Origin: Thermoanaerobaculia bacterium
GTDB lineage: Bacteria; Acidobacteriota; Thermoanaerobaculia; Multivoradales; SZUA-115
NCBI GenBank assembly: GCA_044869805.1
Contig: JBIOXV010000172.1
Location: 14,715-78,714, forward strand
Length of the DNA stretch: 64,000 bases
Reading direction: 5' to 3'
Position numbers and translations under genes: made by a program. Below the pieces are notes generated by a model, which saw only the letters and a program-made list of their open reading frames with translations, did not search any database and was not told the DNA's origin. This document shows, one piece after another, positions 36,233 to 51,628 of this stretch. Every line of letters begins with the position of its first letter. The first letter of the stretch is position 1.

Positions 36233-36416
36233 CCTCGCTCCGAGCCGAGTGGGTCCCGTTTGTACCACGGCCGCCTGCCGGCACACGGGCTGTCCCGGCG
36301 ACGGTGGCAGCCGGCACTCTTAGGACAGGTAATCTTCCGCCATTTTCGCCGGGATCGGCGGGCATCGCCGGCTTGCGATCGCCCGGGCGCCCCGACGAGC
36401 TTAAGTCAAGGAGGCC

Positions 36417-38057
36417 GTGATGAGCTCAGTCCCGAACGGAGCCCGCCTCGCTGTGGCCCTCGCGCTCGTCGGAGCGCTGCCGGCCGTCCCCGCCCTCGCG
36501 GCGTCGCCCGACCATCCCGAGGTCAGCTTCGCCGTGCGGCACGACGTCTCACCGCCGCTCGCCCAGCAGCCGATCCGCCGCCCGCGGGCCGGCCAGCCCG
36601 ATCGGCAGATCCCCCTGCGCGTGCCGCTGGACTTGGCGGCCCGGTATCACCCCACCCCGCCCGCCGCGGACCCGCTGCTCGCGGTGAGCGAGACCTTCGC
36701 GGTCGCCACACCCTCTCCGATCCTCACTTTCGAGGGCCTGTCGGACGACGACAACGCCGCCGTCACCGGCGGCCGGATCGTGCCGCCGGACACCCAGGGC
36801 GACGTGGGCCTCACCCAGTACCTCCAGGCGATCAACCTGATCCTCGCCGTCTACAACAAGGCGACCGGGGCCCGCACCTTCGGCCCGGTGACGGTCGCCT
36901 CGCTGTGGGCCGGCTTCGGGGGCGAATGCGAAACCAACAACGACGGCGATCCCATCGTGCTGTACGACGACGCGGCCGACCGTTGGCTGGTGAGCCAGTT
37001 CGCGATCGCCGCCGACGGCCACCAGTGCATCGCCATCTCCACCACCAACAACCCCGCCGGCTCCTATTTCCGCTACGACTTCGTGGTCAGCCCCGACGCC
37101 TTCAACGACTATCCCAAGCTCGGCGTCTGGCCGGACGGCTACTACATGAGCGCCAACGAGTTCGAGACCAACTTCACCGGCGCCATCGCGGTGGCCTTCG
37201 AGCGCAGCAGGATGCTGCTCGGCCAGCCCGCTCAGATGGTGAAGTTCGGGCCTCTCGCCTGTGGCAGCGAGTGCTTCTTTTCCCTCCAGCCCTCTCACTT
37301 CGAGGGCGGCACGGCGCCGCCGGCCGGCGCGCCCAACACCTTCGTGATGGCCTTCGACGACGAAACCTGGGGAACCGGCTCCAACCCGGACGGCTACCGG
37401 ATCTGGGACTTCACCGTCAACTGGACGAGCCCGGGCAGCTCTAGCTTCATCGTCCGTCCACAGGTCAACGCTCCCGAGTTCGACGCCAACCTGTGCAACT
37501 TCTCGCGGAACTGCATCCGCCAGCCCTCGCCAGGCGAGCGCCTGGACCCGCTGGGTCAGTTCACTATGTTCCGGGCTCAGTACCGAAACTTCGGCACCAG
37601 CGAGCGGATCGTCCTCAACCACACGGTGGACGTGGGCAGCAACCGCGCCGGGGTGCGCTGGACCGAGCTGCGCGACAACGGCAGCGGCTGGGTGCTGCAC
37701 CAGACCGGGACCGTCGCACCCGGCTCCGATTCACGCTGGGTGGGCTCGATCGCCATGGACGGTGACGGCAACATCGCGCTCGGCTACAGCGTCTCGAGCC
37801 AGACCGTCAGGCCCTCGATCCGCTACGCCACGCGCTCGGCGGGAGACCCCTTGGGCACCATGGGCGCGGAGGTGACGCTGCAGGCCGGGGCGGGCGTACA
37901 GCGCCAGTCCTTCAACCGCTGGGGCGACTACTCGACGATGAGCGTCGACCCGGCGGACGACTGCACCTTCTGGTACACGCAGGAGTACTACGCCAACAAC
38001 GGCAGCTTCGACTTCAAGACGCGGATCGGCTCGTTCAAGGTGCCGGGCTGTAGCTGA
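36417..38057 (+). CDS. Secreted protein of unknown function (possibly a sialidase/BNR-like beta-propeller)
   Basis: 546-aa ORF with AAGGAGG upstream and a signal peptide (ALVGALPAVPALAA). The motifs DGDPIVLYD and RWGDYSTMSVDP resemble propeller families. The function call is weak. Confidence 0.7.
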   Translation: MMSSVPNGARLAVALALVGALPAVPALAASPDHPEVSFAVRHDVSPPLAQQPIRRPRAGQPDRQIPLRVPLDLAARYHPTPPAADPLLAVSETFAVATPSPILTFEGLSDDDNAAVTGGRIVPPDTQGDVGLTQYLQAINLILAVYNKATGARTFGPVTVASLWAGFGGECETNNDGDPIVLYDDAADRWLVSQFAIAADGHQCIAISTTNNPAGSYFRYDFVVSPDAFNDYPKLGVWPDGYYMSANEFETNFTGAIAVAFERSRMLLGQPAQMVKFGPLACGSECFFSLQPSHFEGGTAPPAGAPNTFVMAFDDETWGTGSNPDGYRIWDFTVNWTSPGSSSFIVRPQVNAPEFDANLCNFSRNCIRQPSPGERLDPLGQFTMFRAQYRNFGTSERIVLNHTVDVGSNRAGVRWTELRDNGSGWVLHQTGTVAPGSDSRWVGSIAMDGDGNIALGYSVSSQTVRPSIRYATRSAGDPLGTMGAEVTLQAGAGVQRQSFNRWGDYSTMSVDPADDCTFWYTQEYYANNGSFDFKTRIGSFKVPGCS

Positions 38058-39471
38058 GCCCGGCCGATTCCAGCTTCGCCGCCTCCTCCCGCACCACCTG
38101 GTCCGCGGTCAGGCTGGTGCGGGAACTCTTGATGACCGAGAGCTGGTCCAGTAGCCAGGGCGCCGGATCGGCGCCCGTGGCGCGGGCCGTCCTGGCGACG
38201 GCCGCGGCCGCGGCCTTGAGGCAGTTCCTGGGCTCGATGCGATCGAGCTCGTCCCAGAACCAGCCGCAGGAAGAGAACATGCGGTGCCTGAGGCGCTGCG
38301 CCTCGAGGAGATCGCCCAGGCGCGTGACCTCGATGCGCTTGAGCGCGCGCTTCGCAAAGGCGGCCGCCAGCTTGGGCAAGGTCCGCCGGCCGAGTGCCAA
38401 GTCGATCGCGGCCAGCAACAGGCCGTGCGGGTCGTCCACCAGCTCGCCGGCGGCCTGCTGGTAGGCGCGATCGAGATCGACCGCCAAGGCGTTGAGCGCG
38501 GCGCGCAGCGGCGCCTTCCAGTGCGCCTGCGGGGTGCAGTGGCAGAGGTCGCTCCAGCGCGCCACGCCATGGTGACAGCTCCAGGAGCTGGGCTCGACCA
38601 CCTCCATCGACTGGCGCGGCGGGTGCGCGTCGAGGAAGCGGGCGAGGTTGGTGACCTCGAAGCCAGCACGCGACGCGGAGCTCCTCAGCAGGCGGCGCAG
38701 GAAGAGCTGGCGGTCCTTCTGATGGTGGCCGTAGAGCTCGCCGTCGGTGGCGATGAGCAGCAGCCGGTCCTCGCCCTCGGGCTCGAGCCGGGCGCCCAGG
38801 GGCTTGAGCTGCTCGCGGGCGAAGCGGTCGGCGTTGGTGGTGGCGCTGGGGTCGAAGGAGATGCGGCCCGAGAGGCTGCGCACGAAGAAGAAGGCGGCGA
38901 GGCGCCGGCCCTGGGGAAGCTCCACCCAGTAGGGCCGCGTGGGGTCGAGGGTCTGGGTCTTCGCCTGCCAGGGGGCGAGGACCGTGAATTCGATCCCTTG
39001 CTCGGCCGCCACCGCCAGCGTCTCGCGGTCGGCCGCCGTCTCCGGCAGCCACAGGCCGCGGGGCTTCCGACCGAAGCGCCGCTCGAAGTCGGCAACTCCC
39101 CAGGCGATCTCGAGCTCCTTCTCGGCCCGGGTGGCGAGCGGCAGGATGGTGTGGTGGTAGCTCTGGGCGAGCGCTCCGCCGGTGCCCGAGCGGCCGGCTC
39201 CAGATCGCCGGGCGCTCGCCTTGTCGGCGGCGACGATCTTCTTGTGCACGGCGGGGGCCGCGCGCGCCATCCAGGCGAGCAGAGTGGGGCCGAAGTCGAA
39301 GGACAGCAGCTCGTAGTTGCCGGCCTCGGCGTTCGGCCGGTAGCACTCGGCGGTGATCTTCTCGTTGAAGTTGGGATAGGGATCGGCGCCGGGCTCTTCC
39401 GGGATCTCGCCGCTCGCCGGGTCGTCGCGCGGAGGTTGGTAGAAGTGGCCGTGGACGGCGAGGAAGGTCAC
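38035..39471 (-). CDS. Glycoside hydrolase family 57 protein (DUF3536-type)
   Basis: The GTG at 39469-39471 gives VTFLAVHGHFYQPPRDDP... It also contains WLPETAAD and IATDGELYGHH. Only the last 478 aa of the 1151-aa track ORF belong to this gene. Confidence 0.85.
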   Translation of the reverse strand: MTFLAVHGHFYQPPRDDPASGEIPEEPGADPYPNFNEKITAECYRPNAEAGNYELLSFDFGPTLLAWMARAAPAVHKKIVAADKASARRSGAGRSGTGGALAQSYHHTILPLATRAEKELEIAWGVADFERRFGRKPRGLWLPETAADRETLAVAAEQGIEFTVLAPWQAKTQTLDPTRPYWVELPQGRRLAAFFFVRSLSGRISFDPSATTNADRFAREQLKPLGARLEPEGEDRLLLIATDGELYGHHQKDRQLFLRRLLRSSASRAGFEVTNLARFLDAHPPRQSMEVVEPSSWSCHHGVARWSDLCHCTPQAHWKAPLRAALNALAVDLDRAYQQAAGELVDDPHGLLLAAIDLALGRRTLPKLAAAFAKRALKRIEVTRLGDLLEAQRLRHRMFSSCGWFWDELDRIEPRNCLKAAAAAVARTARATGADPAPWLLDQLSVIKSSRTSLTADQVVREEAAKLESAGLSYSPAP

Positions 39472-40688
39472 GCCGCCCGTACCTTGACTCGCTCCCCCAC
39501 CAGCTCGAGCAGGCGCTTGAGCTCGTCGTAATCCGGGTAGCGCAGCCGCACCCAGGCGTTGGCCATGTAGCCCGCCTCCACCGGCTGGGTACGCGAGCCC
39601 ACCGGTGGAAAGTGATAGTCGATGATCCACTCCGCGAGCTCGTGCTCCATCTCCTCGACGCCCTCGTAGGCGACGATCCGCCCGTCGCGGTCCGGCCGCA
39701 GGTTGACGATGCCGGCCGAGAAGCGCCGGCTGGGCACCTGGGTGGTGTGGCCGTGGACGATCGCCGCCGCCCACTCGCGGTAGACGTCCATCTCGTTGGC
39801 GGCGCAGTAGAGGTCCCAGGCGCCCACCCCCGGCGGCCGGCAGCCGATCTCCGAGAACTTGAGGCCCTTGTTGCCGAAGAACCACTCCATGTGGGTGGCC
39901 GAGGTGCCGATCGAGAGCGCCGCGATCACCTGCGTCCCCAGCCGCTTGACCTCGTCGTACCCTGAAGAGTCGATGCGGTTGGTGGCGATGAACATCGGCG
40001 AGACGTGGCGCTCGCGCATCGCGGTCAGCACCCGCGGGTAGTAGTGGGTGATGAACTCGTGGCCTACCTCGCCGCCGGCGGTGATGGTGTCGTAGAAGCC
40101 CTCGTGCCCGTCGATGAACTCCTCGACGGCGACCGAGGCGCCGCGCTCGAAGCCCTGCTCGGCAATCGCCGCCTCGAGCTCGCGCGCGTCGTCGGCGCGC
40201 GTGGTGCCGGCGGCGCCGGCGCCGCTCCTCGGCTTCAAGATCACGGGGAAGCCGACGCGCGCCGCGAAGTCGCGCACCTCCGCGGCCGAGGAAGCCGCCG
40301 CCGACTGCGCGCAGGGGATGCCCTGCTCGCGCAGGAACTCCTTCATCGCCGGCTTGTCGCGGCAGAGGTAGGTGGTCTGGACCGAGGTGCCGGGGATGCC
40401 GCAGGCCTCGCGCACATGCGCCGCGGTCATCACGTGCGCCTCGATGGTGGCTTCGAGGCGATCCACCCAGCCGCGCCGCTGCACGTTGCGCACCGCCTCG
40501 AGCAGGGACTCCTCGTGTACCACCGAGGAGACCTCCTCGTAGTCGTGCAGCATTCGCCTGAGATCGGACGGCAGGGCCGAGGCCGGCACCTCGCCGATCG
40601 CCGTCACCTTGGCCCCCACCTCGGCCAGGCCGCGCACGAACTTGCGCTGGTTGAAGGGGAAGGCGGGCTCCACGAAGACCACGTGCAT
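39468..40688 (-). CDS. ATP-grasp ligase, paralog A (~406 aa, L-amino-acid-ligase-like)
   Basis: ATG at 40688 with GGAG 7 nt upstream. It begins MHVVFVEPAFP and contains VGFPVILKPRSGAGAAGT, VEEFIDGHE and THMEWF...EIGCRPPG. Its stop overlaps the GH57 GTG (GTGA). Confidence 0.85.
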   Translation of the reverse strand: MHVVFVEPAFPFNQRKFVRGLAEVGAKVTAIGEVPASALPSDLRRMLHDYEEVSSVVHEESLLEAVRNVQRRGWVDRLEATIEAHVMTAAHVREACGIPGTSVQTTYLCRDKPAMKEFLREQGIPCAQSAAASSAAEVRDFAARVGFPVILKPRSGAGAAGTTRADDARELEAAIAEQGFERGASVAVEEFIDGHEGFYDTITAGGEVGHEFITHYYPRVLTAMRERHVSPMFIATNRIDSSGYDEVKRLGTQVIAALSIGTSATHMEWFFGNKGLKFSEIGCRPPGVGAWDLYCAANEMDVYREWAAAIVHGHTTQVPSRRFSAGIVNLRPDRDGRIVAYEGVEEMEHELAEWIIDYHFPPVGSRTQPVEAGYMANAWVRLRYPDYDELKRLLELVGERVKVRAA

Positions 40689-40715
40689 GCGGGTTCTCCA
40701 AAGCCGGGAACGCGG

Positions 40716-40724
40716 GGATAATAC
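40716..40724. promoter_or_regulatory. AT-rich core GGATAATAC that can act as a -10 element on both strands of the divergent intergenic region
   Basis: Plus strand: GATAAT (40717-40722) lies 9 nt before the ATG at 40732, with no SD. Minus strand: TATTAT (40718-40723) lies about 30 nt before the ATG at 40688, which does have an SD. Confidence 0.3.
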
Positions 40725-40731
40725 ACCGCCT

Positions 40732-41682
40732 ATGGCGAGGGCTATCGTTCTTCTGGGGCCGCAGCGGCTGCAGCCGACGCTGGTATCGGTGTGCGACGAG
40801 ATGGGCCTTCGGGGTCCCATCGCGGCGGTCACCGCCGGCTGGCAGGAGCGCGAGGCCGAGGTCGAGGAGATGCGGGCGCATCTCAATCGCCCGGTGGTCA
40901 ACCTGATGCTCCACGAGCGGGGCGAGAAGCTCTTCGCCGCCGATCCCAGGCTGGCCGAGAAGTACCGCGAGCGGCAGGACCGCCTGCGCGACCTGCAAGC
41001 GCTCTACCGCCTGCGCCTGGCCCACGCCCTGGCCGCGGCGCGCGAGGTGATGAGCCGCGCCGCCGCTTCGCTTCCCGGGGGCTCGGAGCTGTTCGAGCCC
41101 GAGGTCGAGGCGGCGATCGACGCCGTGCGCGACCTGGACGCGCACCACCTGGCGCGCGTGCGCGAGGTGCACGCGCGCTTCGAGGCCGAGGCGAGGCCCC
41201 TCGAGCGGCCCGCCCTGCTGCGCCACCGGCACGAGCTCGGCCGCCTGCTCGCCGGCTCCACGGCGCTCGCCATCGCCGGCGGCCACGTCGCCGTGCTGCT
41301 CAACCGGCTGCGCCTCTTCGGGGTGCTGGAGCTCGCCGGCGCGCGGCCGATCATCGCCTGGTCGGCCGGCGCCATGGTGCTCGGCGACCGCGTCGTCCTG
41401 TTCCACGACAACCCGCCGCAGGGCGCCGGCAACGCCGAGCTGCTGGAGGCCGGGCTGGGGCTGTTCGCCGACCTGCTGCCCCTGCCGCACGCCGGCAAGC
41501 GCCTAGAGCTCGACGACACCCTGCGCGTCTCGCTCTTCGCCCGTCGCTTCGCCCCCGCCGCCTGCGTGGCCTTGGATCCCCTGGCCCGCGTCTCGCGCCG
41601 CGAGGCCGGCGGCTGGCGGCCGGGCCCCGGCACCCAGGTACTGACCGCCAAGGGAGCCCTGCGGAAGGCCGCTTCGCTATGA
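40732..41682 (+). CDS. Peptidase S51 (peptidase E/cyanophycinase)-like protein with a long helical insert
   Basis: ATG at 40732. It begins MARAIVLLGPQ. It has a GG-turn (LAIAGGHVAVLLNRL) and a nucleophile-type motif (IIAWSAGAMVLG), then LPLPHAG. About 110 aa of helical sequence is inserted. Confidence 0.65.
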   Translation: MARAIVLLGPQRLQPTLVSVCDEMGLRGPIAAVTAGWQEREAEVEEMRAHLNRPVVNLMLHERGEKLFAADPRLAEKYRERQDRLRDLQALYRLRLAHALAAAREVMSRAAASLPGGSELFEPEVEAAIDAVRDLDAHHLARVREVHARFEAEARPLERPALLRHRHELGRLLAGSTALAIAGGHVAVLLNRLRLFGVLELAGARPIIAWSAGAMVLGDRVVLFHDNPPQGAGNAELLEAGLGLFADLLPLPHAGKRLELDDTLRVSLFARRFAPAACVALDPLARVSRREAGGWRPGPGTQVLTAKGALRKAASL

Positions 41683-42815
41683 GCCTGGCGATCCACGAGC
41701 TGCAGCGCAAGAAGCGCATCACCACCAAGGCGGTCGACGACTTCCTGGCCAAGAACGCCTTCCCGCTGGTCGAGGGGCCGAGCGTGACCTTCGTCTATCG
41801 CGGCAAGGCGGACGCCGTGCTGCTCCAGCACTTCATCTACGGGCTGCCCACCTCGCGGCCCTTCAAGCGCATCGACGGCGCCGACCTCTGGTACCTGGTG
41901 ATGGAGCTCCCCGCCAACTCGCGGGTGGAGTACAAGCTGAACGTGGTGAACGGCAAGGATCACCACTGGATCCGCGATCCTTTAAACCCGGTCACCGCCC
42001 GCGACCCGTTCGGCGCCAACTCGGTGGTTCACTCCGCGGGGCACGTGCAGCCGGATTGGACGCTCTTCGACCCGGAGGCCCGCCCCGGCACGATCGAGGA
42101 GCGCGAGATCAAGAGCGAGGCCTTCAAGCGTACCCACGGCTACCGGCTCTACCTGCCGGCACGCTTCAGGACTACCCGGCGCTACCCGCTCCTCGTCCTC
42201 CACGACGGCGACGACTACCTGCGCTTCGCCTCCCTCCAGACGGTGCTCGACAACCTGATCCACCGCATGGAGGTGGCGCCGATCATCGTCGCGCTGATCT
42301 CTTCGCGCGAGCGCCTGACCGAGTACGCGGACGACCCGCGCCACGCGCGCTTCGTGGCCGAGGAGCTGCTGCCCCAGCTCGACCGTACCCTGCCCCTGGA
42401 GCCCTCCCCGGCGGCCCGCGGCCTCGCCGGAGCGAGCTTCGGCGCCGTGGCGTCGCTGGCCACCGCCTGGCGCTACTCCGGGCGCTTCGGCAGGCTGCTC
42501 CTGCAGTCGGGCTCCTTCGCCTTCACCGACATCGGCCACCACAAGCGGGGCCCGGCCTTCGACCCGGTGGTCAAGTTCGTCAACGCCTTCCGCGATCAGC
42601 CGGGGCGGCCGACGGAGAAGGTCTTCGTCTCCTGCGGCACCTACGAGTCGCTGATCTACGAGAACCGCTCGCTCGTCCCGCTGCTGCAGGCCACCGGCAT
42701 GGAGGTCCGCTACGTGGAGGCGCGCGACGGCCACAACTGGGAGAACTGGCGCGACCGCCTGCGCGAGGGCCTCTCGTGGCTGTTCCCCGGGCCACTGTGG
42801 ATGGTGTATGAGTAG
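41679..42815 (+). CDS. Esterase (PF00756/enterochelin-esterase-like) with an N-terminal E-set/CBM48-like beta domain
   Basis: The ATG overlaps the upstream stop (ATGA). The N-domain reads VTFVYRGKADAVLLQ...WYLVMELPANSRVEYKLNVVNG. The hydrolase part contains YPLLVLHDGDDY, GLAGASFGA (GxSxG) and ARDGHNWENW. Confidence 0.8.
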   Translation: MSLAIHELQRKKRITTKAVDDFLAKNAFPLVEGPSVTFVYRGKADAVLLQHFIYGLPTSRPFKRIDGADLWYLVMELPANSRVEYKLNVVNGKDHHWIRDPLNPVTARDPFGANSVVHSAGHVQPDWTLFDPEARPGTIEEREIKSEAFKRTHGYRLYLPARFRTTRRYPLLVLHDGDDYLRFASLQTVLDNLIHRMEVAPIIVALISSRERLTEYADDPRHARFVAEELLPQLDRTLPLEPSPAARGLAGASFGAVASLATAWRYSGRFGRLLLQSGSFAFTDIGHHKRGPAFDPVVKFVNAFRDQPGRPTEKVFVSCGTYESLIYENRSLVPLLQATGMEVRYVEARDGHNWENWRDRLREGLSWLFPGPLWMVYE

Positions 42816-42840
42816 ACCACCTACCGACGAAAGGTAAACC

Positions 42841-44112
42841 ATGGCCACCGTCACCAAGAAGATCGGGCTCTCCCTGGGCGCAGACCTCTGCTGGCCCCTG
42901 TGCTACGAGGAGATCGTCAAGCAGCTCGAGCTGGCGGTGCCGATCGACGGGCACACGGTCGGCGTCGAAGTCGAACGGGTCACTATCGAGCCCTTCAACC
43001 TGCGCCAGCCGGTGAAGTACGACTTGGTGCTCGATCGGCTCACCCACTGGTACCACACCAGCCGCGAGTGGATCAAAAAAGCGGTGCTGATGAACGACCT
43101 CTACGTGCTCAACAACCCGTGGGCCATCCAGTCTATGGAGAAGCACACCACCTACTGCGCCATGATGCGCCTCGGCTTCCCGATCCCCGAGACCTGGATG
43201 CTGCCGCCCAAGGAGTACGAGCCCTCCGACGACCTGCAGGTCACGCTCGAGCGCTACGCGCGGCTCTTCAGCCTGTCCTCGATCGGCGACGAGGTCGGAT
43301 ACCCGATGTTCATGAAGCCGTTCGACGGCGGCGCCTGGAAGGGGGTGCAGCGCATCGAGGACGCCGCCGCCCTGCGCGCGGCCTACGAAGGCAGCGGCAA
43401 GAACATCATGCACCTGCAGAAGGCGGTGGAGGGCTTCGACCTCTTCGTGCGCGGCATCGGCATCGGGCCGCAGGTGCGCTGCGTGCGTTACAACCCGTCG
43501 GCGCCGCTCCATGCGCGCTACGAGGTGGCCTTCAACTTCCTGACCGGCGAGGAGGCCTCCTACCTGCGCGACCAGACGCTGACCATCAACACCTTCTTCG
43601 GCTGGGACTTCAACTCCTGCGAGTCGCTGCGCCAGGGCGGGGTCTTCTACCCTATCGACTTCGCCAACGCCTGCCCCGACTCGCAGGTGACCTCGCTGCA
43701 CTTCCATTTCCCTTGGCTGGTCAAGGCGCAGGTGCGCTGGAGCCTGTTCTGCGCCCTGACCGATCGCAAGATGCGCAAGAACCTGGACTGGGAGCCGTAC
43801 TACCTGATCGCCGACCGCGACGACCTCTCCTTCCGAGAGAAGCTCGCCGCCTACGCCCAGATCGCCGACCAGCGCCTGGACACCGAGCGCTTCCAGGACT
43901 TCTGCAACCGCAATTTGGCGCACCTCGACGAGGTGTCGTGGGAGTTCTTCGGCACCGGCACCGCCAAGGAGGCAGTGCGCAGCAAGGTGGCCGCCCTCTT
44001 CCCGGAGCACGAGATCGAAGAGTTCACCGAGCACTTCTGGGGCCTGATCCAGTTCTGGCGCAAGACCGAGTCCGACCGCATCGGCACGGGGCGAGGGGAG
44101 GAGACGGCGTAG
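42841..44112 (+). CDS. ATP-grasp fold protein, divergent type B (423 aa)
   Basis: It contains VGYPMFMKPFDGGAWKGVQRI, IMHLQKAVEGFDLFVRGIGIG and YPIDFANACP. It is not alignable by eye with paralogs A, C or D outside the core motifs. Confidence 0.75.
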   Translation: MATVTKKIGLSLGADLCWPLCYEEIVKQLELAVPIDGHTVGVEVERVTIEPFNLRQPVKYDLVLDRLTHWYHTSREWIKKAVLMNDLYVLNNPWAIQSMEKHTTYCAMMRLGFPIPETWMLPPKEYEPSDDLQVTLERYARLFSLSSIGDEVGYPMFMKPFDGGAWKGVQRIEDAAALRAAYEGSGKNIMHLQKAVEGFDLFVRGIGIGPQVRCVRYNPSAPLHARYEVAFNFLTGEEASYLRDQTLTINTFFGWDFNSCESLRQGGVFYPIDFANACPDSQVTSLHFHFPWLVKAQVRWSLFCALTDRKMRKNLDWEPYYLIADRDDLSFREKLAAYAQIADQRLDTERFQDFCNRNLAHLDEVSWEFFGTGTAKEAVRSKVAALFPEHEIEEFTEHFWGLIQFWRKTESDRIGTGRGEETA

Positions 44113-44167
44113 GTCGACCTTTCCAAGCTCGCCCGCCTTCGCACTCTGCGACTGGAGACACTTGCCT

Positions 44168-47167
44168 ATGGCCTCTCGCCGCCTGATCTGCCTCGCCTTC
44201 GCTTTCATGGCCGCCGCGGCTCGCGGTGACGACGACCTCGACGCGCGCCTCGCCGAGATCGCCGCCTGCCAGCTCGACACCGCCAAGGCGGTCACCGTCC
44301 GCGGCCTCGCGCTCAACACCGGCATGGCCACCCTCAAGGTGGACACCGGCACCTTCTTCCCCGCCAGCCCGGTGGCCGGCCGGGTGACGGAAGCGGTCTT
44401 CCTGGGCAAGGCGCGGCTGGTGCTCGATCCCCCCGACGAGATCGAGCGCGCGCAGCTCGAGATCTTCACCGGCCGGACGCGCCTCGAGGTGGAGATCTCC
44501 GAGGCCGCTTTCGTGCTCGCCAGTGACCGGGCCGCGGAAGCGGTGTTCAAGCGCTCGCCGGCCGCGGTCGAGCCGGCCCTCGCCAGCCGGGCGACGGAGC
44601 TCTTCGCCACCTGGAAGGCGAGCCCGGAGCGCAAGCAGCTCGACGTCGACGGCGCCATCCTCGCCGACAGCCTCGGCGACGCCTTCGCCCAGGGCTACTT
44701 CGCCGGCTGGTTCCAGAGCGCGGAGCTGGGCAAGTTCCTCTACCTGGTCGAGCCGAGCTCCGTCGAGCAGGTGACGCTCGGGCAGTTCGTGCCCATCGAC
44801 CTCACCAAGAAAGAGAAACGCAAGGCGGCCAAGCTGATCCACCGCGAGCAGCGGCGGGGGCGGCTGATCGGCATCGAGGTCGAGGACCTGGGGCAGTGGG
44901 ATACCTGGGTCTCGGCCTCGCTCCGCGGCGCCGCGGCCGGGCCCACGCCCGGCGATCCCGGCTTCGAGCCCGAGCGCTACGTGGTCGATCTCTCGCTCGC
45001 CGACCGCGACCTCGCGGTCAGCGGCCGGGCGCAGATCCAGCTCCGGGCCACGCTCGGCATCACCCGCATCGTGCACCTCGCCGTCCACTCCGAGCTCGAA
45101 GTGACGAAGGTGCTGGGCGAAGGCGGGGAGGCGCTGCCCTTCCGCCAGACCGGCGGCGAGGTGATGGTCGTGCTGCCGCGGGCGCCGGCGGCGGGAGAGA
45201 CCGCCGTCGTCGAGGCCCACTTCGACGGGGAGCTGCTGGAGAAGGTCGAGGGCGGCGTCTTCCTCCTCGCCGAGACCGTGAACTGGCACCCCCACGCCGG
45301 CGACGTCGACCGTGCCACCTACGACGTGACCTTCCACTGGCCGGGGCGCCTCGAGCTGCTGGCCGGCGGCAAGCGGGTGGGCGGCGGCGCGGAGAAGAGC
45401 GGCCGGCAATGGGAGCGGCGGTCGATCGAGCTGCCGGCCGCGGGGCTCGGCTTCGAGGTCGGCAAGTTCCATCTCACGACCCGCCAGGCCGGGCACGTGG
45501 CGATCCGGCTGGGGATGATGCCTTTCGCCGGCGAGGGCCGCAAAGGAATCGAGGAACGCATCCTCGATGCCGCCAGCCGGTCCCTCACCTACTTCGAGGA
45601 GGCCTTCGGTCCCTACCCGCTCGACGAGCTGATCCTAGTGCTGACCCCGCGCCTCTACTCGCAGGCCCTGCTCGGTTTCGTCACCCTGTCGGCGGTGATG
45701 ATGGCCGAAGACAGCCTCTTGGTCTGGCTGATCGGCCTCGAGGACCCGCGCACGGTGATCGCCCACGAGGTCGCGCACCAGTGGTGGGGCCACCAGGTGG
45801 GCTGGCTGGGCTACCGCGACCAGTGGCTGTCCGAGGCGATGGCCAACTACGCGGCGGTGCTCTTCGCGCGGAACGAGCTCGGCGGCGAGCTGCGCTACGC
45901 CCGCGGCCCCACCTCCGACTGGCAGGCGGCGCTGCTCGAGGAGACCGCGGACGGCCGGCCCATCGAGTCGCTGGGGCCGCTGGTGCTCGGGGCGCGGCTC
46001 TCCTCGAGCCGCGGCGGCGACGCCTATAGCTCGATCGTCTACCGCAAGGGGGCGGTAGTGCTCGACATGCTCGCCCGCCGCTTCGGCGAGCAGGCCTTCC
46101 TCGGCATGCTCAAGAAGACCGCCGAGGTCGCCGCCCACCGCGCCATCTCGACCGAGATCTTCCTCGACGCGCTGGAGCGGCAGTCCGGGGTCGAGCTCGA
46201 CGGCTTCGCCGGCCAGTTCATCTACGGCACCGGCCTGCCGGAGGTGTACTACGACTACACCTTCGCCCAGGCGGAGGGCGGCAAGTGGAAGGTGACCGGC
46301 ACCGCCCGCCAGAGCGCCCCTTACCGCTTCCGGTACCGCGTGGTGGAGAGCGCCGGCGGCTTCGACGTGGGGCGCGAGCGGATCGACCTGGCGCGGGTCG
46401 CCGACTCGGCGCTGATCGTGCCGGTGCAGATCGCGCTGTACGACCCGACGAAGCAGGAGGAGAAGAAGGCGAAGCGCAGCGAGGCGCGCGCGATCGGCAA
46501 CAGTCTGCTCTCGGGCCACATCCTGCTCCGGGGCGAGTCGACGCCCCTCTCCTTCGAGCTCGACCACGAGCCCAAGGAGGTCTGGCTCGACCGCCGGGAG
46601 GAGGTGTTCGGCCGCTTCTTCAACCAGCGTCGGCATCCGAAGCGCATGCTCCTGTACCAGGCGATCGACCTCGCGGCCGCCGGCCGCCGCGAGGAGGCGC
46701 TGGCGCTCGCCGCCCAGGCCCTCGCCGCCGAGACCTTCTCCGGCCCCCGTTACGAGGACTCTCCCGGGCCCGAGGACCTCGAGGCCGAGGCGCAGTCGCT
46801 CGACGGCCAGGTGCACCTCCTGCTCGGCCGCCTCCACCTCGACGCCGGCCGCGACGCCGAGGCGCGCTCGGCGCTGGGCGCGGCGAGAGACCTCCTCGAG
46901 CCCGGCAAGCACCCGTGGCGGAAGGGGGAGATCGACCTGCTGGACGCCCGCCTGGCGCTGCACGAGAAGGACTTCGAGCGCGCCTACCGCCTGCTGCGCA
47001 AGGGGGTGGTCAAGCAGGGCACCATCGAGGGCGCCGAGGGCTCGCTGCTGCTGGCGATCGCGGCCCGCGCCACCGGCCACACCGAGGAAGCGAAGCAGGC
47101 GATCGAGGACGCCAAGCAAGGAGGCGCCGAGGTGGGGGCGCTCACCGCGGCGGCCAAGCCCCGCTGA
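44168..47167 (+). CDS. Exported M1-like gluzincin metalloprotease with a C-terminal helical/TPR-like region
   Basis: It has a signal peptide (MASRRLICLAFAFMAAAARG). It carries HEVAHQWWG-x18-E (WLSEAMANY). I see no GXMEN motif upstream of HEXXH. The helical-repeat tail is about 250 aa. Confidence 0.85.
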   Translation: MASRRLICLAFAFMAAAARGDDDLDARLAEIAACQLDTAKAVTVRGLALNTGMATLKVDTGTFFPASPVAGRVTEAVFLGKARLVLDPPDEIERAQLEIFTGRTRLEVEISEAAFVLASDRAAEAVFKRSPAAVEPALASRATELFATWKASPERKQLDVDGAILADSLGDAFAQGYFAGWFQSAELGKFLYLVEPSSVEQVTLGQFVPIDLTKKEKRKAAKLIHREQRRGRLIGIEVEDLGQWDTWVSASLRGAAAGPTPGDPGFEPERYVVDLSLADRDLAVSGRAQIQLRATLGITRIVHLAVHSELEVTKVLGEGGEALPFRQTGGEVMVVLPRAPAAGETAVVEAHFDGELLEKVEGGVFLLAETVNWHPHAGDVDRATYDVTFHWPGRLELLAGGKRVGGGAEKSGRQWERRSIELPAAGLGFEVGKFHLTTRQAGHVAIRLGMMPFAGEGRKGIEERILDAASRSLTYFEEAFGPYPLDELILVLTPRLYSQALLGFVTLSAVMMAEDSLLVWLIGLEDPRTVIAHEVAHQWWGHQVGWLGYRDQWLSEAMANYAAVLFARNELGGELRYARGPTSDWQAALLEETADGRPIESLGPLVLGARLSSSRGGDAYSSIVYRKGAVVLDMLARRFGEQAFLGMLKKTAEVAAHRAISTEIFLDALERQSGVELDGFAGQFIYGTGLPEVYYDYTFAQAEGGKWKVTGTARQSAPYRFRYRVVESAGGFDVGRERIDLARVADSALIVPVQIALYDPTKQEEKKAKRSEARAIGNSLLSGHILLRGESTPLSFELDHEPKEVWLDRREEVFGRFFNQRRHPKRMLLYQAIDLAAAGRREEALALAAQALAAETFSGPRYEDSPGPEDLEAEAQSLDGQVHLLLGRLHLDAGRDAEARSALGAARDLLEPGKHPWRKGEIDLLDARLALHEKDFERAYRLLRKGVVKQGTIEGAEGSLLLAIAARATGHTEEAKQAIEDAKQGGAEVGALTAAAKPR

Positions 47168-47177
47168 CCGCCGGCCG

Positions 47178-47435
47178 TTACTCGGTCATCCGGCTGCGCC
47201 GGGCCCGATTCTCCAGCATCTCCAGGAACCACGCCTCGGGGGTCGCCACGTCGCGCCAGCGGTAGATCAGCATCGCCACCACGTCGGCGAGGATCACGGC
47301 GGCGGTGTCGGGGTGCACGCCGTAGCGCTGAAACATCTCGATGATGCGCGGCTCGAGGCGCGCGACCAGGGCCTGGATCTCCTTCCACTGACCCGGCTCG
47401 CCGTCCTCTCCGCCGCCGTCATCACCGTCCGACAT
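47178..47435 (-). CDS. Small protein with an acidic Gly/Asp/Glu N-terminal tail, unknown function
   Basis: The ATG at 47435 gives MSDGDDGGGEDGEPGQWKEIQALVARL... (85 aa). It lies downstream of glgA on the same strand. Confidence 0.5.
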   Translation of the reverse strand: MSDGDDGGGEDGEPGQWKEIQALVARLEPRIIEMFQRYGVHPDTAAVILADVVAMLIYRWRDVATPEAWFLEMLENRARRSRMTE

Positions 47436-47441
47436 GGCTTC

Positions 47442-47447
47442 ATTATC
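47442..47447 (-). promoter_or_regulatory. -10-like GATAAT 6 nt upstream of the small-ORF ATG (possible leaderless transcript)
   Basis: The reverse strand reads GATAAT-gaagcc-ATG. No SD. Confidence 0.25.
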
Positions 47448-47488
47448 TACGCGGTCAAGACCGGCCCCCAGGATACGCGGCCGGCGCA

Positions 47489-47509
47489 CGCCGGGATTAC
47501 CGCCCGGCG
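47489..47509 (-). terminator. Hairpin about 20 nt downstream of the glgA stop
   Basis: cgccggg-attaccg-cccggcg, a 7-bp stem. No U-tract. Confidence 0.3.
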
Positions 47510-47528
47510 TAACGCGCCCGGGGCGAGA

Positions 47529-49043
47529 TCAGAAGTGCCCCGCCAGGAGCGCCTCGTACAGTGCCACGTAGCGCTCGATCTGCGACTCCCAGGAGAAGTC
47601 CCGGCTCATGCCGGCGAGCATCAATCGCCGCCAGGCCTCGCGATCCTGGTAGAGGTCGAGCGCCTGGTTCACGGCCCACGCCAGGCCCTCGGGCGTGAAG
47701 TGCTCGAATACGAAGCCGGTGCCACTGCCGTCCCCGGGGTCGAAGGGCTCCACCGTGTCGGCGAGGCCGCCGGTCTTGCGCACCACGGGCGGCGTGCCGT
47801 AGCGCTGGCTGTACATCTGGTTCAAGCCGCAGGGCTCGTAGAGCGAGGGCATGAGGAAGATATCGGCGCCCGCCTCGATCAGATGGGCCAGCGGCTCGCT
47901 GTAACCGCGGTAGAAGACCACGCGGTCGGGGAAGCCGTGCTGCAGCCCGGCGAAGAACTCCTCGTACTTGCGCTCGCCGTTGCCGAGCACCACCAGGCGG
48001 GCGTTGCGTCGCGCCAGCAGGCCCGGCAGGACCTCGAAGAACAGGTCGAAGCCCTTCTGCGCGGTGAGGCGCGACACCACGCCCAAGAGTGGCACCCGCT
48101 CCTCGGCGGCCGAGCCGGGAGCGGCGAGCCCCAGGGAGGCCAGCCCCAGAGAAGCTAGCAAATCGGCCTTGTTGGCGGCCTTGCCGGAGAGGTCGGCCGC
48201 CGAGTAGGGGTGGGGGATGTGGGGGTCGTTCGCCGGGTCCCACTCCTCGGCGTCGATGCCGTTGACGATCCCCACCAGGTGGTCGCCGCGCGCCCGCAGC
48301 ACGCCCTGGAGCCCCATGCCGTAGCGGTCGGTCTGGATCTCCAGGGCGTGGGTGCGCGACACGGTGGTGATGACCCCGGCATAGAGCAGGCCGGTCTTCA
48401 AGAAGTTGATCCGCCCGGCCGCGAGGTCGTCCTGGTAGAGGTAGGAGGCGACCCCCGCGAGCCCCAGCTCGGGCAGCAGGCCGCTGCCGAACACTCCCTG
48501 GTAGCCCACGTTGTGCAGCGTGAGCACGGTCTTGGTGCCGGCGAACAGGCGGTCCCAGGCGTAGACGGTGCGCAGGTAGAGGGGCATCAAGGCGGTGTGC
48601 CAGTCGTGCGCGTGCACGATGTCCGGTGCCCAGCCCATGCGCTGGCAGCACTCGAGCGCCGCCCGCGACAGGAAGGCGAAGCGCAGCGCCTCGTCCGCGT
48701 CCTGCGTGTAGTAGCCCTCGCGGTCGTAGAGCGCCGGGCAGTGGATGAAGTAGAGCGGCGGCCCGCCGCCGTGGGTGCCGACGCCCGGCAGCGGCGCCGT
48801 GTAGGCGGAGAAGGAGAGGTGGCGGTCGCCCACCGAGATCGGCACGTCGCGCAGGAAGGCGACCGGGAAAAACGAGTGCTGCGAGCGATCGATCTTCGAG
48901 TACAGCGGCAGGAAGGCGCGCACGTCGTGCCCGGCGCGGTCGAGGTAGCGGGCGAGCGAGGCGGCGACATCGCCCAGGCCGCCGGTCTTGGCGAACGGGG
49001 TGAGCTCGGAGCTCGCCTGGCAGATGCGCAGCGGCCGGTCCAC
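47529..49043 (-). CDS. glgA: Glycogen synthase (ADP-glucose type, GT5)
   Basis: The GTG at 49041-49043 overlaps the glgC TAG by 1 nt. It contains SSELTPFAKTGGLGDV, HAHDWH, NGID...WDP, and PSLYEPCGLNQMY plus RKTGGLADTV. Only the last 504 aa of the 1172-aa track ORF belong to this gene. Confidence 0.92.
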   Translation of the reverse strand: MDRPLRICQASSELTPFAKTGGLGDVAASLARYLDRAGHDVRAFLPLYSKIDRSQHSFFPVAFLRDVPISVGDRHLSFSAYTAPLPGVGTHGGGPPLYFIHCPALYDREGYYTQDADEALRFAFLSRAALECCQRMGWAPDIVHAHDWHTALMPLYLRTVYAWDRLFAGTKTVLTLHNVGYQGVFGSGLLPELGLAGVASYLYQDDLAAGRINFLKTGLLYAGVITTVSRTHALEIQTDRYGMGLQGVLRARGDHLVGIVNGIDAEEWDPANDPHIPHPYSAADLSGKAANKADLLASLGLASLGLAAPGSAAEERVPLLGVVSRLTAQKGFDLFFEVLPGLLARRNARLVVLGNGERKYEEFFAGLQHGFPDRVVFYRGYSEPLAHLIEAGADIFLMPSLYEPCGLNQMYSQRYGTPPVVRKTGGLADTVEPFDPGDGSGTGFVFEHFTPEGLAWAVNQALDLYQDREAWRRLMLAGMSRDFSWESQIERYVALYEALLAGHF

Positions 49044-50308
49044 TAGACCTCCGTGCCGTCCGGCACCACCGCCCCGGCCGCCACCACGATGATGCCGTCG
49101 CGGATGCACCAGTTGTCGCCGTCGGCGTGGGTCACGCCGCCCGCGTTGACCAGCTTGACGCCGTTGCCGATGCGCACGTCGCGGTCGAGGATGGCGTGCT
49201 TGATCACGCAGTCGCGGCCGATACCGAGCGGGATGTTGCTGCCCGCCGCCTCGTCGGGCTCGAAGAAGTTGGCGCCCATCACCACGCTGTCCTCGACCAC
49301 CGAGCCGGAGCGGATCACCGAGCGCACCCCGAAGATCGAGCGCTGGATCTCGGCGCCGGTGATGATCGAGCCGTCGCACAGCACCGAGTGGTAGACCCGG
49401 CACTCGTTCACCTTCACCCCGGGCAGGAAGCGCGGGTGGGTGAAGATCGGGTAGTCGGGGCTGTAGAGGTTGAGCGGCGGCACCGGCACCGCGAGCTCCA
49501 GGTTCGAGCTGTGGAAGTTGCCGATGGTGCCGATGTCGCGCCAGTAGCCGTCGTAGCCGAAGGCGTAGATCTTCCGCTCGTGGATCGCCTTGGGGATGAT
49601 CTCTTTGCCGAAGTCGTGGTCGTCGGTGCCCACCAGCAGGTCGCGCAGCAGGCCGGGGCGGAAGACGTAGATGCCCATGCTGGCGAGGAGCGCGTCCTCC
49701 TCGGTTTCGAAGCCGAGCTTCTTCAGCGTGGCGGCGTCGGTAATCAGGCGGTCGAGGACCTCCTTCTCGGTCGGCTTCTCCACGAACTCGATGATGCGGC
49801 CGGCGGAGTTGACGCGCATGATCCCCAGGCCTTTGGCCTGTGACCGGGGCACCGCCTTGACCGCCACCGTCATGTCCGCCTTCTTCTGCCGATGGGTGTC
49901 GACGAAGTTCCTCATCTCCATCAGGTAGAGCTGGTCGCCGGACAGCACCAGCACCTCGGAAGGCTGCAGCAGGAGCAGCCGGTCCAGGTTCTGGCGCACG
50001 GCGTCGGCCGTGCCCTGGTACCAGTCGCGGCGCTCGAGGCCCTGCTCGGCGGCCAGGATGTTGACGAAGCCGCGCGAGAAGACGTCGAAGCGATAGGTCT
50101 GCGCGATGTGCTGGTGCAGGCTCGCCGAGTTGAACTGGGTCAAGACGAAGATGCGGGTGATGCCGGCGTGCAGGGAGTTCGAGATCGGCACGTCGATCAG
50201 CCGAAACTTGCCCCCCACCGGCACCGCCGGCTTGGCCCGGCTCTTGGTGAGCGGCCACAGGCGCGCTCCCTGCCCACCCCCCAGGATCGCGGTGACGACG
50301 TTCCTCAT
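49043..50308 (-). CDS. glgC: Glucose-1-phosphate adenylyltransferase
   Basis: 421-aa ORF. It contains ILGGGQGARLWPLTKSRAKPAVPVGGKFRLIDVPISN and a C-terminal left-handed beta-helix. SD GAGAGGGG lies upstream. Confidence 0.95.
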   Translation of the reverse strand: MRNVVTAILGGGQGARLWPLTKSRAKPAVPVGGKFRLIDVPISNSLHAGITRIFVLTQFNSASLHQHIAQTYRFDVFSRGFVNILAAEQGLERRDWYQGTADAVRQNLDRLLLLQPSEVLVLSGDQLYLMEMRNFVDTHRQKKADMTVAVKAVPRSQAKGLGIMRVNSAGRIIEFVEKPTEKEVLDRLITDAATLKKLGFETEEDALLASMGIYVFRPGLLRDLLVGTDDHDFGKEIIPKAIHERKIYAFGYDGYWRDIGTIGNFHSSNLELAVPVPPLNLYSPDYPIFTHPRFLPGVKVNECRVYHSVLCDGSIITGAEIQRSIFGVRSVIRSGSVVEDSVVMGANFFEPDEAAGSNIPLGIGRDCVIKHAILDRDVRIGNGVKLVNAGGVTHADGDNWCIRDGIIVVAAGAVVPDGTEV

Positions 50309-50347
50309 CGGCGCCCCTCTCTTGAAGCCAAGCCTCTGAGGTGGCAG

Positions 50348-50377
50348 ATCTTACTCGCACTCGCCCGCCCGGCCCAA
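50348..50377 (-). promoter_or_regulatory. Candidate promoter for glgC-glgA
   Basis: The reverse strand reads TTGGGC (50372-50377), 18 nt, TAAGAT (50348-50353). It lies 39 nt upstream of the glgC ATG. Confidence 0.25.
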
Positions 50378-50383
50378 GGCCGC

Positions 50384-50389
50384 TATACT
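50384..50389 (+). promoter_or_regulatory. -10-like TATACT 8 nt upstream of the ATP-grasp C start (possible leaderless transcript)
   Basis: TATACT, then ccccgccc, then the GTG at 50398. No SD and no convincing -35. Confidence 0.25.
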
Positions 50390-50397
50390 CCCCGCCC

Positions 50398-51618
50398 GTG
50401 CCGCACGTCGTCTTCGTAGCGCCGTTCCTGATGCCGGCCACGGCGCGCTTCGCGCAGGCCACGGCGAGCCTGCCGGGGGTCAAGGTCGGGCTCATCACCC
50501 AGGACCCGGCGGCCAAGATCCCGCCTTCGCTCGCCGCCTCGATCGCCGCCCACCGGCGGGTGGAGAACGCTTTCGACCCGGTGCGCTTGGCCGATGCGGC
50601 CCGCGACCTCGCGCGCTCGATCGGCGGCCTCGACCGGCTGATGGGGGCCCTGGAGCAGCTCCAGGTGCCGCTCGCCCAGGCGCGCGAGATCCTGGGGGTC
50701 GAGGGCATGCGGGTAGAGGCGGCGAAGAACTTCCGCGACAAGGCGCGCATGAAGACCGTGCTGCGGGAGGCCGGCCTGCCCTGCGCCCGCCACCGGCTGG
50801 CGGCTTCCGCCGAGGAGGCGCGCGACTTCGCGCGCGAGGTCGGCCTGCCGCTGGTGGTCAAGCCCCCGGACGGCGCGGGCGCCAAGGCCACCTTCAGGGT
50901 GGGCACGCCCGAGGCGCTGGAGGAGGCCTTGAAGGTCAACGCGCCGGCGCCCGGCCGCCCGGTGCTGCTCGAGGAGTTCGTCACCGGCGACGAGTACTCT
51001 TTCGAGACCGTTTCGATCGCCGGCCGGCCGGTGTGGTACTCCTCCACCCGCTACCTGCCGACGCCGCTCGAGGCGATGCACAACCCATGGATTCAGTGGT
51101 GCGTGCTGCTGCCTCGGGAGCGCGAGGACCCGCGCTTCGACGACGTCAAGGAAGTGGCTTTCAAGGGGCTCGCGGCGCTGGGCATGGGCACCGGCCTCTC
51201 GCACATGGAGTGGTTTCGGCGCCGCGACGGCTCGCTCGCCATCTCCGAGGTCGCCGCCCGCCCTCCGGGCGCGCAGATCACCACCCTGGTTTCGGTGGCG
51301 CACGAGTTCGACTTCCTCGCCGCCTGGGCACGCCTCATGGTGTTCAGCGAGTTCCATCCGCCGCCGCGCAAGTGGGCCTCCGGCGCCGCCTTCTTCCGCG
51401 GCATGGGCGGGAGCCGCGTCAAGGCCGTGCACGGCCTCGACCAGGCGCAGAAGGAGCTGGGGCCGCTGGTGGTCGAGGCCAAGCTGCCCAAGCCCGGCGC
51501 CCCCAAGTCCGACAGCTACGAGGGCGACGGCTACGCCGTGCTGCGCCACGAGAGCACCGAGACGGTACGGAAGGCGCTGATGCGGCTGGTGGCGCTGGTG
51601 CGCGTCGAATACAACTGA
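50398..51618 (+). CDS. ATP-grasp ligase, paralog C (~406 aa)
   Basis: I chose the GTG at 50398 by alignment with the paralog N-termini (VPHVVFVAPFLMP). It contains VGLPLVVKPPDGAGAKAT, LEEFVTGDE and SHMEWF...EVAARPPG. Confidence 0.82.
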   Translation: MPHVVFVAPFLMPATARFAQATASLPGVKVGLITQDPAAKIPPSLAASIAAHRRVENAFDPVRLADAARDLARSIGGLDRLMGALEQLQVPLAQAREILGVEGMRVEAAKNFRDKARMKTVLREAGLPCARHRLAASAEEARDFAREVGLPLVVKPPDGAGAKATFRVGTPEALEEALKVNAPAPGRPVLLEEFVTGDEYSFETVSIAGRPVWYSSTRYLPTPLEAMHNPWIQWCVLLPREREDPRFDDVKEVAFKGLAALGMGTGLSHMEWFRRRDGSLAISEVAARPPGAQITTLVSVAHEFDFLAAWARLMVFSEFHPPPRKWASGAAFFRGMGGSRVKAVHGLDQAQKELGPLVVEAKLPKPGAPKSDSYEGDGYAVLRHESTETVRKALMRLVALVRVEYN

Positions 51619-51628
51619 GATCCCGTCG

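Follow-up and report, generated by a model that had tools for sequence, protein, structure and literature searches.

A 64,000-nucleotide stretch of DNA from a Thermoanaerobaculia bacterium (assembly GCA_044869805.1, contig JBIOXV010000172.1, positions 14,715 to 78,714 of the forward strand; hereafter referred to as the window) was found to carry a conserved gene module in which ATP-grasp ligases are set beside serine hydrolases. As delimited by sequence comparison, the module consists of genes for an S51-like serine hydrolase, a Fes-like esterase (EST1), a divergent ATP-grasp ligase (AGb), three further ATP-grasp proteins of the L-amino acid ligase (LAL) type (AGa, AGc, and AGd), and usually a second esterase (EST2), with a GCS2/CBS ligase added in some lineages. 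The glycogen synthase gene glgA is linked to it, joined in the window by glgC and a GH57 gene. We propose, with a probability of roughly 0.45, that the product of the ligases is a non-ribosomal peptide or depsipeptide, which the hydrolases dismantle, and that this compound is made and used together with glycogen. A first-pass annotation of positions 40732-47167 had described a single four-gene operon combining one ligase with three hydrolases. The linkage of the S51-like, EST1, and AGb genes proved to be conserved, but the fourth gene, encoding an exported M1-like peptidase, is not part of the conserved unit, and the count of one ligase was too low, as four ATP-grasp genes lie around the locus.

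An alignment of AGb homologues was used to fetch 80 loci from species-representative genomes, and the window proteins were mapped onto these loci by tblastn; L numbers below denote individual loci. The loci derive from Acidobacteriota, Myxococcota, Planctomycetota, Eisenbacteria, Binatia, Actinomycetota, and one Steroidobacteraceae genome, representing at least six phyla, and include two labeled Enterobacteriaceae that are probably mis-binned. A cultured carrier of the module is Nannocystis punicea FL3 (NZ_CP114040.1, around 12.67-12.70 Mb; L058). EST1 immediately precedes AGb in 54 of 77 loci, the S51-like gene is upstream of EST1 in 46 of 68, and EST2 follows AGb directly in 54 of 76. AGa adjoins the module, in either orientation, in 33 of 63 loci. 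Among the 39 fully flanked loci, AGc was present within 10 kb of AGb in 25, AGd in 19, and all three LAL-type paralogues in 18; glgA also lay that close in 19. The expected frequency of chance proximity within 10 kb is well below 1% for a single-copy gene in a genome of 5-13 Mb. All-against-all clustering of open reading frames (ORFs) of at least 120 aa from the 80 loci revealed no further very common long partner, although this clustering was confounded by alternative-frame ORFs in DNA of 70% GC, and no conserved transporter was present in the clusters.

The S51-like gene (positions 40732-41682, plus strand) encodes a protein of 316 aa. Its score against the Pfam S51 family (PF03575), 21.1 bits, is under the gathering cut-off of 23.9 bits, and many of its homologues carry a precomputed PF03575 match. 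The AlphaFold2 model of the protein was confident (predicted local distance difference test score (pLDDT) of 90.9 and predicted TM score of 0.89) and has the α/β fold of class-I glutamine amidotransferase-like proteins, matching the structures of a cyanophycinase-like peptidase (6nqc) and of PepE-type peptidases (7ffp, 6a4t, and 3l4e). As modeled, the protein is cyanophycinase-like, and ∼200 of its 316 residues can be aligned to cyanophycinase. The helical insert that had been noted earlier as ∼110 aa long is present in the model as a hairpin of ∼115 aa (residues ∼59-175, with helices at 60-70, 72-112, 118-154, and 160-174) and lies outside the coverage of the matched S51 structures, which span 194-266 residues.

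Inspection of the model places Ser211, within the WSAGA nucleophile-type motif that the first-pass annotation had picked out (residues 210-214), in an elbow between a strand (207-210) and a helix (212-216), and places His253 at the end of strand 248-252. Both residues are invariant in 30 homologues and, when an insert-free family profile is used, they align with the active-site Ser and His of PepE from Deinococcus (6a4t), in an alignment that alone has an E value of ∼0.9. No invariant Glu follows His253. The third residue of the triad is probably Asp282, at the end of strand 277-281, a position occupied by Asp or Glu in 29 of the 30 homologues, giving Ser211-His253-Asp282 as the candidate triad.

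EST1 (positions 41679-42815, plus strand; 378 aa) combines an E-set N-domain (residues ∼30-125) with a PF00756 catalytic domain (E = 2.5e-23). The GxSxG motif reported for this esterase is intact as GASFG at residues 251-255; Ser253 within it and His352 are invariant in relatives, and Glu323 is nearly so. Residues 97-369 match Fes with an E value of 2.9e-31 (2.7e-15 for PDB entry 2b20), whereas the score on the Fes equivalog NF007758 is 108.9 bits against a cut-off of 222. By these comparisons EST1 is a full-length but distant homologue of Fes. It shares the two-part build of Fes and IroD and differs from Fes in falling under the equivalog cut-off, in being paired with ATP-grasp ligases, and in having no siderophore synthesis, receptor, or export genes nearby. 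A siderophore pathway was accordingly rejected, as neither a non-ribosomal peptide synthetase (NRPS) nor an NRPS-independent siderophore synthetase, receptor, or exporter gene was found near the loci examined. The proposed resemblance of the N-domain to both the enterochelin esterase N-domain and CBM48 holds at the sequence level: Enterochelin_N is matched by 22 of 24 relatives (best E of 9e-8; 23.9 bits for the window protein, cut-off 27.1), CBM_20 more weakly by 11 of 24 (best E of 4e-4), and CBM_48 by 2 of 24 (best E of 1e-5). The domain is thus best classed, from these profiles, as an E-set module closest to that of Fes, with weaker similarity to CBM_20 and CBM_48.

EST2 is a short PF00756 esterase of ∼245 aa encoded directly 3′ of AGb, in places overlapping the AGb stop codon. 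Both esterases keep the GxSxG motif and the catalytic His. No full-length EST2 homologue was found in the 64-kb window, where the M1-like gene occupies the EST2 slot. One long AGb-containing protein (P0377), encountered in a Pfam scan for fusions, carries a C-terminal esterase fragment; this may be a gene-calling artefact and was not used. The suggestion that an esterase beside an ATP-grasp ligase would allow an ester-linked (depsi) product is strengthened by the second esterase that AGb usually has after it. Fes cleaves amino acid (seryl) ester bonds, and ester bonds in the product are likely given that there are two esterases, one of them related to a seryl ester-cleaving enzyme.

AGb (positions 42841-44112, plus strand) is a protein of 423 aa with a helical C-terminal extension and with invariant K159, R204, E261, D273, and N276. 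Neither Pfam nor NCBIfam has a family for it, and public records label it hypothetical, a fragment in one source being labeled “glutathione synthase/RimK-type ligase-like.” Profile comparison by hhalign aligned AGb residues 99-286 with residues 130-314 of the LAL-type ATP-grasp proteins (probability 97.4%, E = 9e-12), so that K159, E261, and D273 fall on K152, E268, and E280 of the latter; these three AGb residues are invariant across a 22-sequence alignment reaching down to 27% identity. AGb can be placed firmly, on sequence grounds, within the ATP-grasp superfamily, with the predicted ATP-binding Lys and acidic Mg ligands retained. The retention of catalytic or ligand residues in AGb, EST1, EST2, and the S51-like protein makes all four look like active enzymes.

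Further AGb profile matches were to Ddl, RimK, and biotin carboxylase. The only matches extending beyond the ATP-binding stretch were to RimK/LysX-type enzymes (E = 2e-4 over residues 55-220), the best being within the RimK/LysX/GshB group (COG0189). AGb departs from the RimK group in having D-x-x-N where E-x-N is usual and a helical C-terminal extension of ∼130 aa. Its match to the RimK family α-L-glutamate ligase model (TIGR00768, E = 1e-5) reaches 25.1 bits against a cut-off of 143.4. More than 7000 AGb matches are present among 90%-identity sequence clusters. Across the 80 loci the median AGb identity is 67%, with ∼65-70% between Acidobacteriota, Myxococcota, and Planctomycetota. Clustering at 50% left one full-length AGb sequence near the family's own level (698 bits), the next full-length sequences scoring at most 440 bits, consistent with a tightly conserved main clade.

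Such strong conservation is often seen where an enzyme contacts a conserved macromolecule, and together with the RimK/LysX-type matches it would fit reversible protein tagging, with AGb attaching amino acids, at the C terminus or on a side chain, to a target protein that may be a glycogen enzyme, and the S51-like protein and esterases erasing the tag. This is improbable in our estimate. The RimK family score is 25 bits where 143 are called for, and the small-ORF screen yielded neither an S6- or LysW-like partner nor, in the clusters, any conserved carrier or precursor ORF of 30-119 aa. Three LAL-type ligases, a GCS2 ligase, and two esterases would also be hard to fit into a tagging system.

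The ligases that accompany AGb lie on both sides of it. AGa (positions 39468-40688, minus strand; 406 aa) is divergent from the S51-like gene, whereas AGc (50398-51618) and AGd (51629-52846) are on the plus strand. The four ATP-grasp proteins of the window are 405-423 aa in length. AGa matches the Pfam ATP-grasp family (E = 5e-11) and solved L-amino acid ligases (PDB entries 4wd3, E = 2.4e-14, and 3vot, E = 4.7e-9), with a weak LAL_C2 match (E = 0.0024) under the cut-off. AGa, AGc, and AGd are 32-36% identical to one another and keep the KP, EEF, and E-x-x-x-RPPG motifs. Their nearest solved relatives are L-amino acid ligases, a group that includes RizA (4wd3), BL00235 (3vot), and BacD, and the match extends over most of the ATP-grasp domain; unlike those enzymes, they are found as three paralogues together, beside glycogen genes and not in an antibiotic cluster. 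In 19 Myxococcota and Binatia loci (e.g. L036:12018-13976), EST2 is directly followed by a gene for a 653-aa protein with a GCS2 domain and two CBS domains, which surfaced via an antisense shadow ORF in the small-ORF screen. This protein is predicted to be a carboxylate-amine ligase of the glutamine synthetase fold and would constitute the fifth ligase of the module. CBS domains commonly bind adenine nucleotides, and a CBS-bearing ligase together with the glycogen linkage suggests control by energy state.

The glycogen genes of the window lie between AGb and AGc on the minus strand. glgA (positions 47529-49043) encodes an ADP-glucose-type glycogen synthase (TIGR02095, 515 bits, cut-off 328), and glgC (49043-50308) encodes glucose-1-phosphate adenylyltransferase (NF002772, 537.3 bits, cut-off 537); by these scores both are canonical. 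The glgA start is probably the GTG at 49043, which would overlap the glgC stop codon (TAGTG, 49041-49045, minus strand), and the two genes would therefore be translationally coupled. On the other side of the locus, a gene for an α-glucan-active enzyme with GH57 and DUF3536 domains (38035-39471, minus strand; PF03065, E = 2e-20; PF12055, E = 2e-22) begins at a GTG that overlaps the AGa stop codon (GTGA, 39468-39471). This 4-nt overlap, also present in the public gene calls of L081, suggests translational coupling of AGa and the GH57 gene. In the loci whose layout was read, glgA remained beside one LAL-type gene despite many rearrangements, and in eleven loci glgA, AGa, the S51-like gene, EST1, and AGb are co-directional, with gaps of 2-75 nt between glgA and AGa. 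The persistence of the module beside glgA, and in the window also beside glgC and the GH57 gene, is the reason for tying the proposed compound to glycogen.

The same linkage might reflect covalent decoration of the glucan itself. Here the ATP-grasp ligases would esterify amino acids or short peptides onto hydroxyls of glycogen or a glycogen-like oligosaccharide, EST1 (docked via its E-set N-domain) and EST2 would strip them off, and the S51-like protein would trim the peptide. Apart from the persistent adjacency of glgA to LAL-type ligases and the AGa-GH57 coupling, this idea draws on an isoamylase gene located two genes from AGa in L087, on the two esterases being the most constant partners of AGb, and on the weak CBM_20 and CBM_48 matches of the EST1 N-domain. 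Ester formation by ATP-grasp enzymes has precedent in VanA and the graspetide ligases. A conceptual precedent for an ester-acylated cytoplasmic α-glucan is the mycobacterial methylglucose lipopolysaccharide (MGLP), the gene cluster of which contains a GH57 enzyme and a GlgA-like transferase. MGLP differs, however, in using acyl-CoA-type acyltransferases and methyltransferases in place of ATP-grasp enzymes, and no homology to the module was found beyond GH57 and GlgA. To our knowledge, no ATP-grasp enzyme acylates a sugar hydroxyl. The EST1 N-domain fits the Fes N-domain better than either carbohydrate-binding family, none of the ligases has a carbohydrate-binding module, and glgA is missing from the 10 kb around AGb in 20 of the 39 fully flanked loci. 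We therefore regard glucan decoration as doubtful.

More distant relatives of AGb indicate that the pairing of ligase and S51 hydrolase is older than the present module, because the pair recurs in a subfamily only ∼35% identical to AGb. In this subfamily an AGb-like ATP-grasp gene is again found directly after a gene for a long S51 protein of 464-486 aa (L085:5305-7991 and L089:6540-9230) that is homologous to the protein of the window and shares with it the motifs GG-x-V..L.NRLR, SAGA, and PHA. HEAT-repeat and DUF3806 genes lie upstream of, and divergent from, the long S51 gene in both loci, and in L089 two Ser/Thr kinase genes follow the AGb-like gene. A GDSL esterase gene is adjacent in one of the ∼35%-identical loci, and in a third AGb-like branch a PF00756 esterase gene lies 4 kb away, such that an esterase is near in two of three branches. 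Still more distant AGb-like paralogues (L084:1302-2732 and L092:8001-9335) occur in quite different settings: one has an insert of ∼35 aa and adjoins a Rieske/VanA_C oxygenase gene, and another adjoins an adenylation-polyketide synthase pair and a C39-peptidase ATP-binding cassette exporter. Recurrence of the S51-AGb pair fits the turnover layout, as in cphA with cphB, that had been suggested for the locus.

Catabolism is the classical role of Fes-type esterases and of S51 peptidases, as in Fes, PepE, and cyanophycinase, and the module is variable in that some loci, such as L002, L004, and L006, showed no S51-like or EST1 gene in the vicinity of AGb. Both observations would suit salvage, with the hydrolases degrading an imported or endogenous ester or peptide compound and the ligases re-using the acids to form different bonds. 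However, the stop/start overlaps that join the S51-like gene to EST1 and AGb to EST2, combined with the ancient S51-AGb pair, point to a single process, and salvage would leave the absence of a conserved transporter from the clusters unaccounted for. On balance, it is an unlikely account of the module.

The M1-like gene (positions 44168-47167, plus strand) is a neighbor of the module and not a member. It encodes an M1-family metallopeptidase (PF01433, E = 7e-21) with a signal-like N terminus and a C-terminal TPR region. Motif reading bore out both the HEXXH-x18-E zinc site (HEVAH535-x18-E558) and the lack of GXMEN that had been described: no match to GXMEN was found in the protein, in which the slot reads LGFVTL, and the core GF(V/M)TL is kept in nearly all 12 aligned orthologues. 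The family also keeps a VY(R/K)KGA motif with the catalytic Tyr. Scores on pepN models were at most 49 bits against cut-offs of at least 591. These features describe an exported enzyme of predicted M1 fold that has lost the N terminus-anchoring motif and is not PepN; it is probably specific to Acidobacteriota and not an aminopeptidase. The N terminus reads MASRR, then LICLAFAFMAAAA, then RG, and signal-like N termini are present in all 12 aligned members. The best 10-aa hydropathy value is 2.75 for the M1-like protein as compared with 1.2-1.5 for the S51-like protein, EST1, and AGb, in line with the view that it is the sole exported product of the four. All of the module proteins are without recognizable export signals, and the module is predicted to be cytoplasmic.

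That all four plus-strand genes work on one product, with the M1-like enzyme acting beyond the cytoplasm on that product or a related substrate, draws on their common strand, on the 55-nt gap (from 44113 to the M1-like ATG at 44168) with GGAG ∼10 nt 5′ of the ATG and an in-frame TTG at 44162, and on a consensus scan in which no terminator-like site was found within 40732-47167. The gene order is also shared by the closest relative, L001, and by a second public contig of the same species. By contrast, the M1-like gene is downstream of AGb in only 1 of 60 loci, L001 itself, and the slot normally belongs to EST2 (54 of 76). Two orthologues that are ∼50% identical are located beside rpoA and the ribosomal operon and beside EF-G/dNK, with no AGb near, and the gene is accordingly treated as a lineage-specific passenger. 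The family is small (269 matches), and its organism-named matches are all from Acidobacteriota/Thermoanaerobaculia save two metagenome-assembled genomes labeled “bacterium” and “Deltaproteobacteria,” whereas at least six phyla carry the module. The M1-like product would, moreover, be in a different cell compartment from the module proteins. A functional four-gene unit is thus very improbable. The M1-like peptidase is perhaps co-transcribed with the module yet would not act on its cytoplasmic product. For annotation, the lesson is that a tidy four-gene “operon” can bring together genes of a conserved module and, in the usual place of EST2, an exported peptidase that has nothing to do with it.

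The close packing described for the plus-strand genes was reproduced exactly. The S51-like gene and EST1 overlap by an ATGA stop/start (41679-41682), and 25 nt separate the EST1 stop (42815) from the AGb start (42841), upstream of the 55-nt gap given above. A 43-nt divergent spacer (40689-40731) between AGa and the S51-like gene contains a −10-like GATAAT (40717-40722) 9 nt before the S51-like ATG at 40732, and five other Acidobacteriota loci (L001, L003, L009, L016, and L062) have boxes of the ATAAT or TATAA type at this spacing. A −10-like TATACT (50384-50389) likewise lies 8 nt before the probable AGc start, GTG 50398 (MPHVVFVAP); the longer AGc ORF from 50341 probably does not mark the real start. 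The position of these boxes suggests that the transcripts of the S51-like gene and of AGc are leaderless or have a very short leader. A generic σ70 consensus scan detected no full promoter, and an Rfam scan of positions 36000-54000 gave no match.

Two further ORFs lie near these genes. One of 103 aa (47178-47489, minus strand) is downstream of glgA and belongs to no Pfam family; its N-terminal part is acidic and rich in Gly and Asp, and its tblastn matches were confined to the closest relatives (L082, L001, and L002), where its position is the same. The other, of 546 aa (36417-38057, plus strand), lies just upstream of the GH57 gene and has a hydrophobic signal-like N terminus and no Pfam family. 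The region is ∼70% GC. The nearest relatives are from Thermoanaerobaculia (Acidobacteriota), and the exact AGb protein is also present on a contig of assembly GCA_044868515.1.

The closest known parallel to the module is cyanophycin metabolism. As in CphA and CphB, an ATP-grasp ligase is genetically paired with a serine hydrolase of the S51 fold, and in both cases a cytoplasmic make-and-break logic is tied to reserve metabolism. The differences are nonetheless extensive. The four ATP-grasp proteins have neither the Mur ligase-type M domain nor the N domain of CphA, and they are four separate proteins in place of one multidomain enzyme; the cyanophycin synthetase models TIGR02068 and NF010623, with cut-offs of 850-877 bits, score 38-47 bits and match only ∼90 generic ATP-binding residues. 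A genuine cyanophycin locus was rejected on these grounds. The two esterases have no counterpart in cyanophycin metabolism, nor does the linkage to glgA, and the S51-like protein departs from CphB in its ∼115-aa helical hairpin and in having GGH in place of the expected GGN motif.

Taken together, the data can be explained by the following minimal scheme. The ATP-grasp ligases would use ATP and acyl-phosphate chemistry to build a non-ribosomal peptide-type compound, an oligomer or polymer containing amide and probably ester bonds, and the three serine hydrolases (the S51-like protein, EST1, and EST2) would take it apart again, following the same make-and-break pair logic as cyanophycin synthetase with cyanophycinase. 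The compound would probably be made and consumed with glycogen, within reserve or energy-state metabolism. Cyanophycin needs two ligase activities, and the presence of many different ligases argues against a simple homopolymer.

Several points weigh against this scheme. Four or five different ligases exceed the need of a simple storage polymer, the esterases could be transferases or amidases instead of breakdown enzymes, and co-regulation alone may account for the linkage to glgA. The S51-like triad is a candidate one, assigned by alignment and strand ends, and the AlphaFold2 model of AGb, made from a 15-sequence alignment of 67-91% identity, reached a pLDDT of only 49.5 and was set aside. The 80 loci are the best-scoring AGb matches, mostly from metagenome bins, so the locus frequencies and the 67% median AGb identity are biased upwards and do not amount to an unbiased census. 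Finally, a full-text literature search returned no description of this gene combination or of a product, substrate, or phenotype for it; a 2009 survey of amidoligase neighborhoods (Iyer et al.), which may mention the combination, was outside that search.

The conservation of the set and its wide distribution in abundant soil, sediment, and water bacteria make it very likely that the module produces something physiologically important and undescribed. A bolder version, which we consider rather unlikely, is that the product is a new cytoplasmic biomaterial made by ATP-grasp chemistry, either an α-glucan carrying ester-linked amino acids or peptides or a branched depsipeptide reserve held beside glycogen, for which EST1, EST2, and the S51-like protein would be the dedicated mobilizing enzymes. 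If that were true, at least six bacterial phyla would share a storage or glucan-modification chemistry of a new class. If the proposed compound proves to be a reserve or a modification of glycogen, its ligases would offer new chemistry for biotechnology, and the module itself would be a new element of carbon and nitrogen storage in bacteria.

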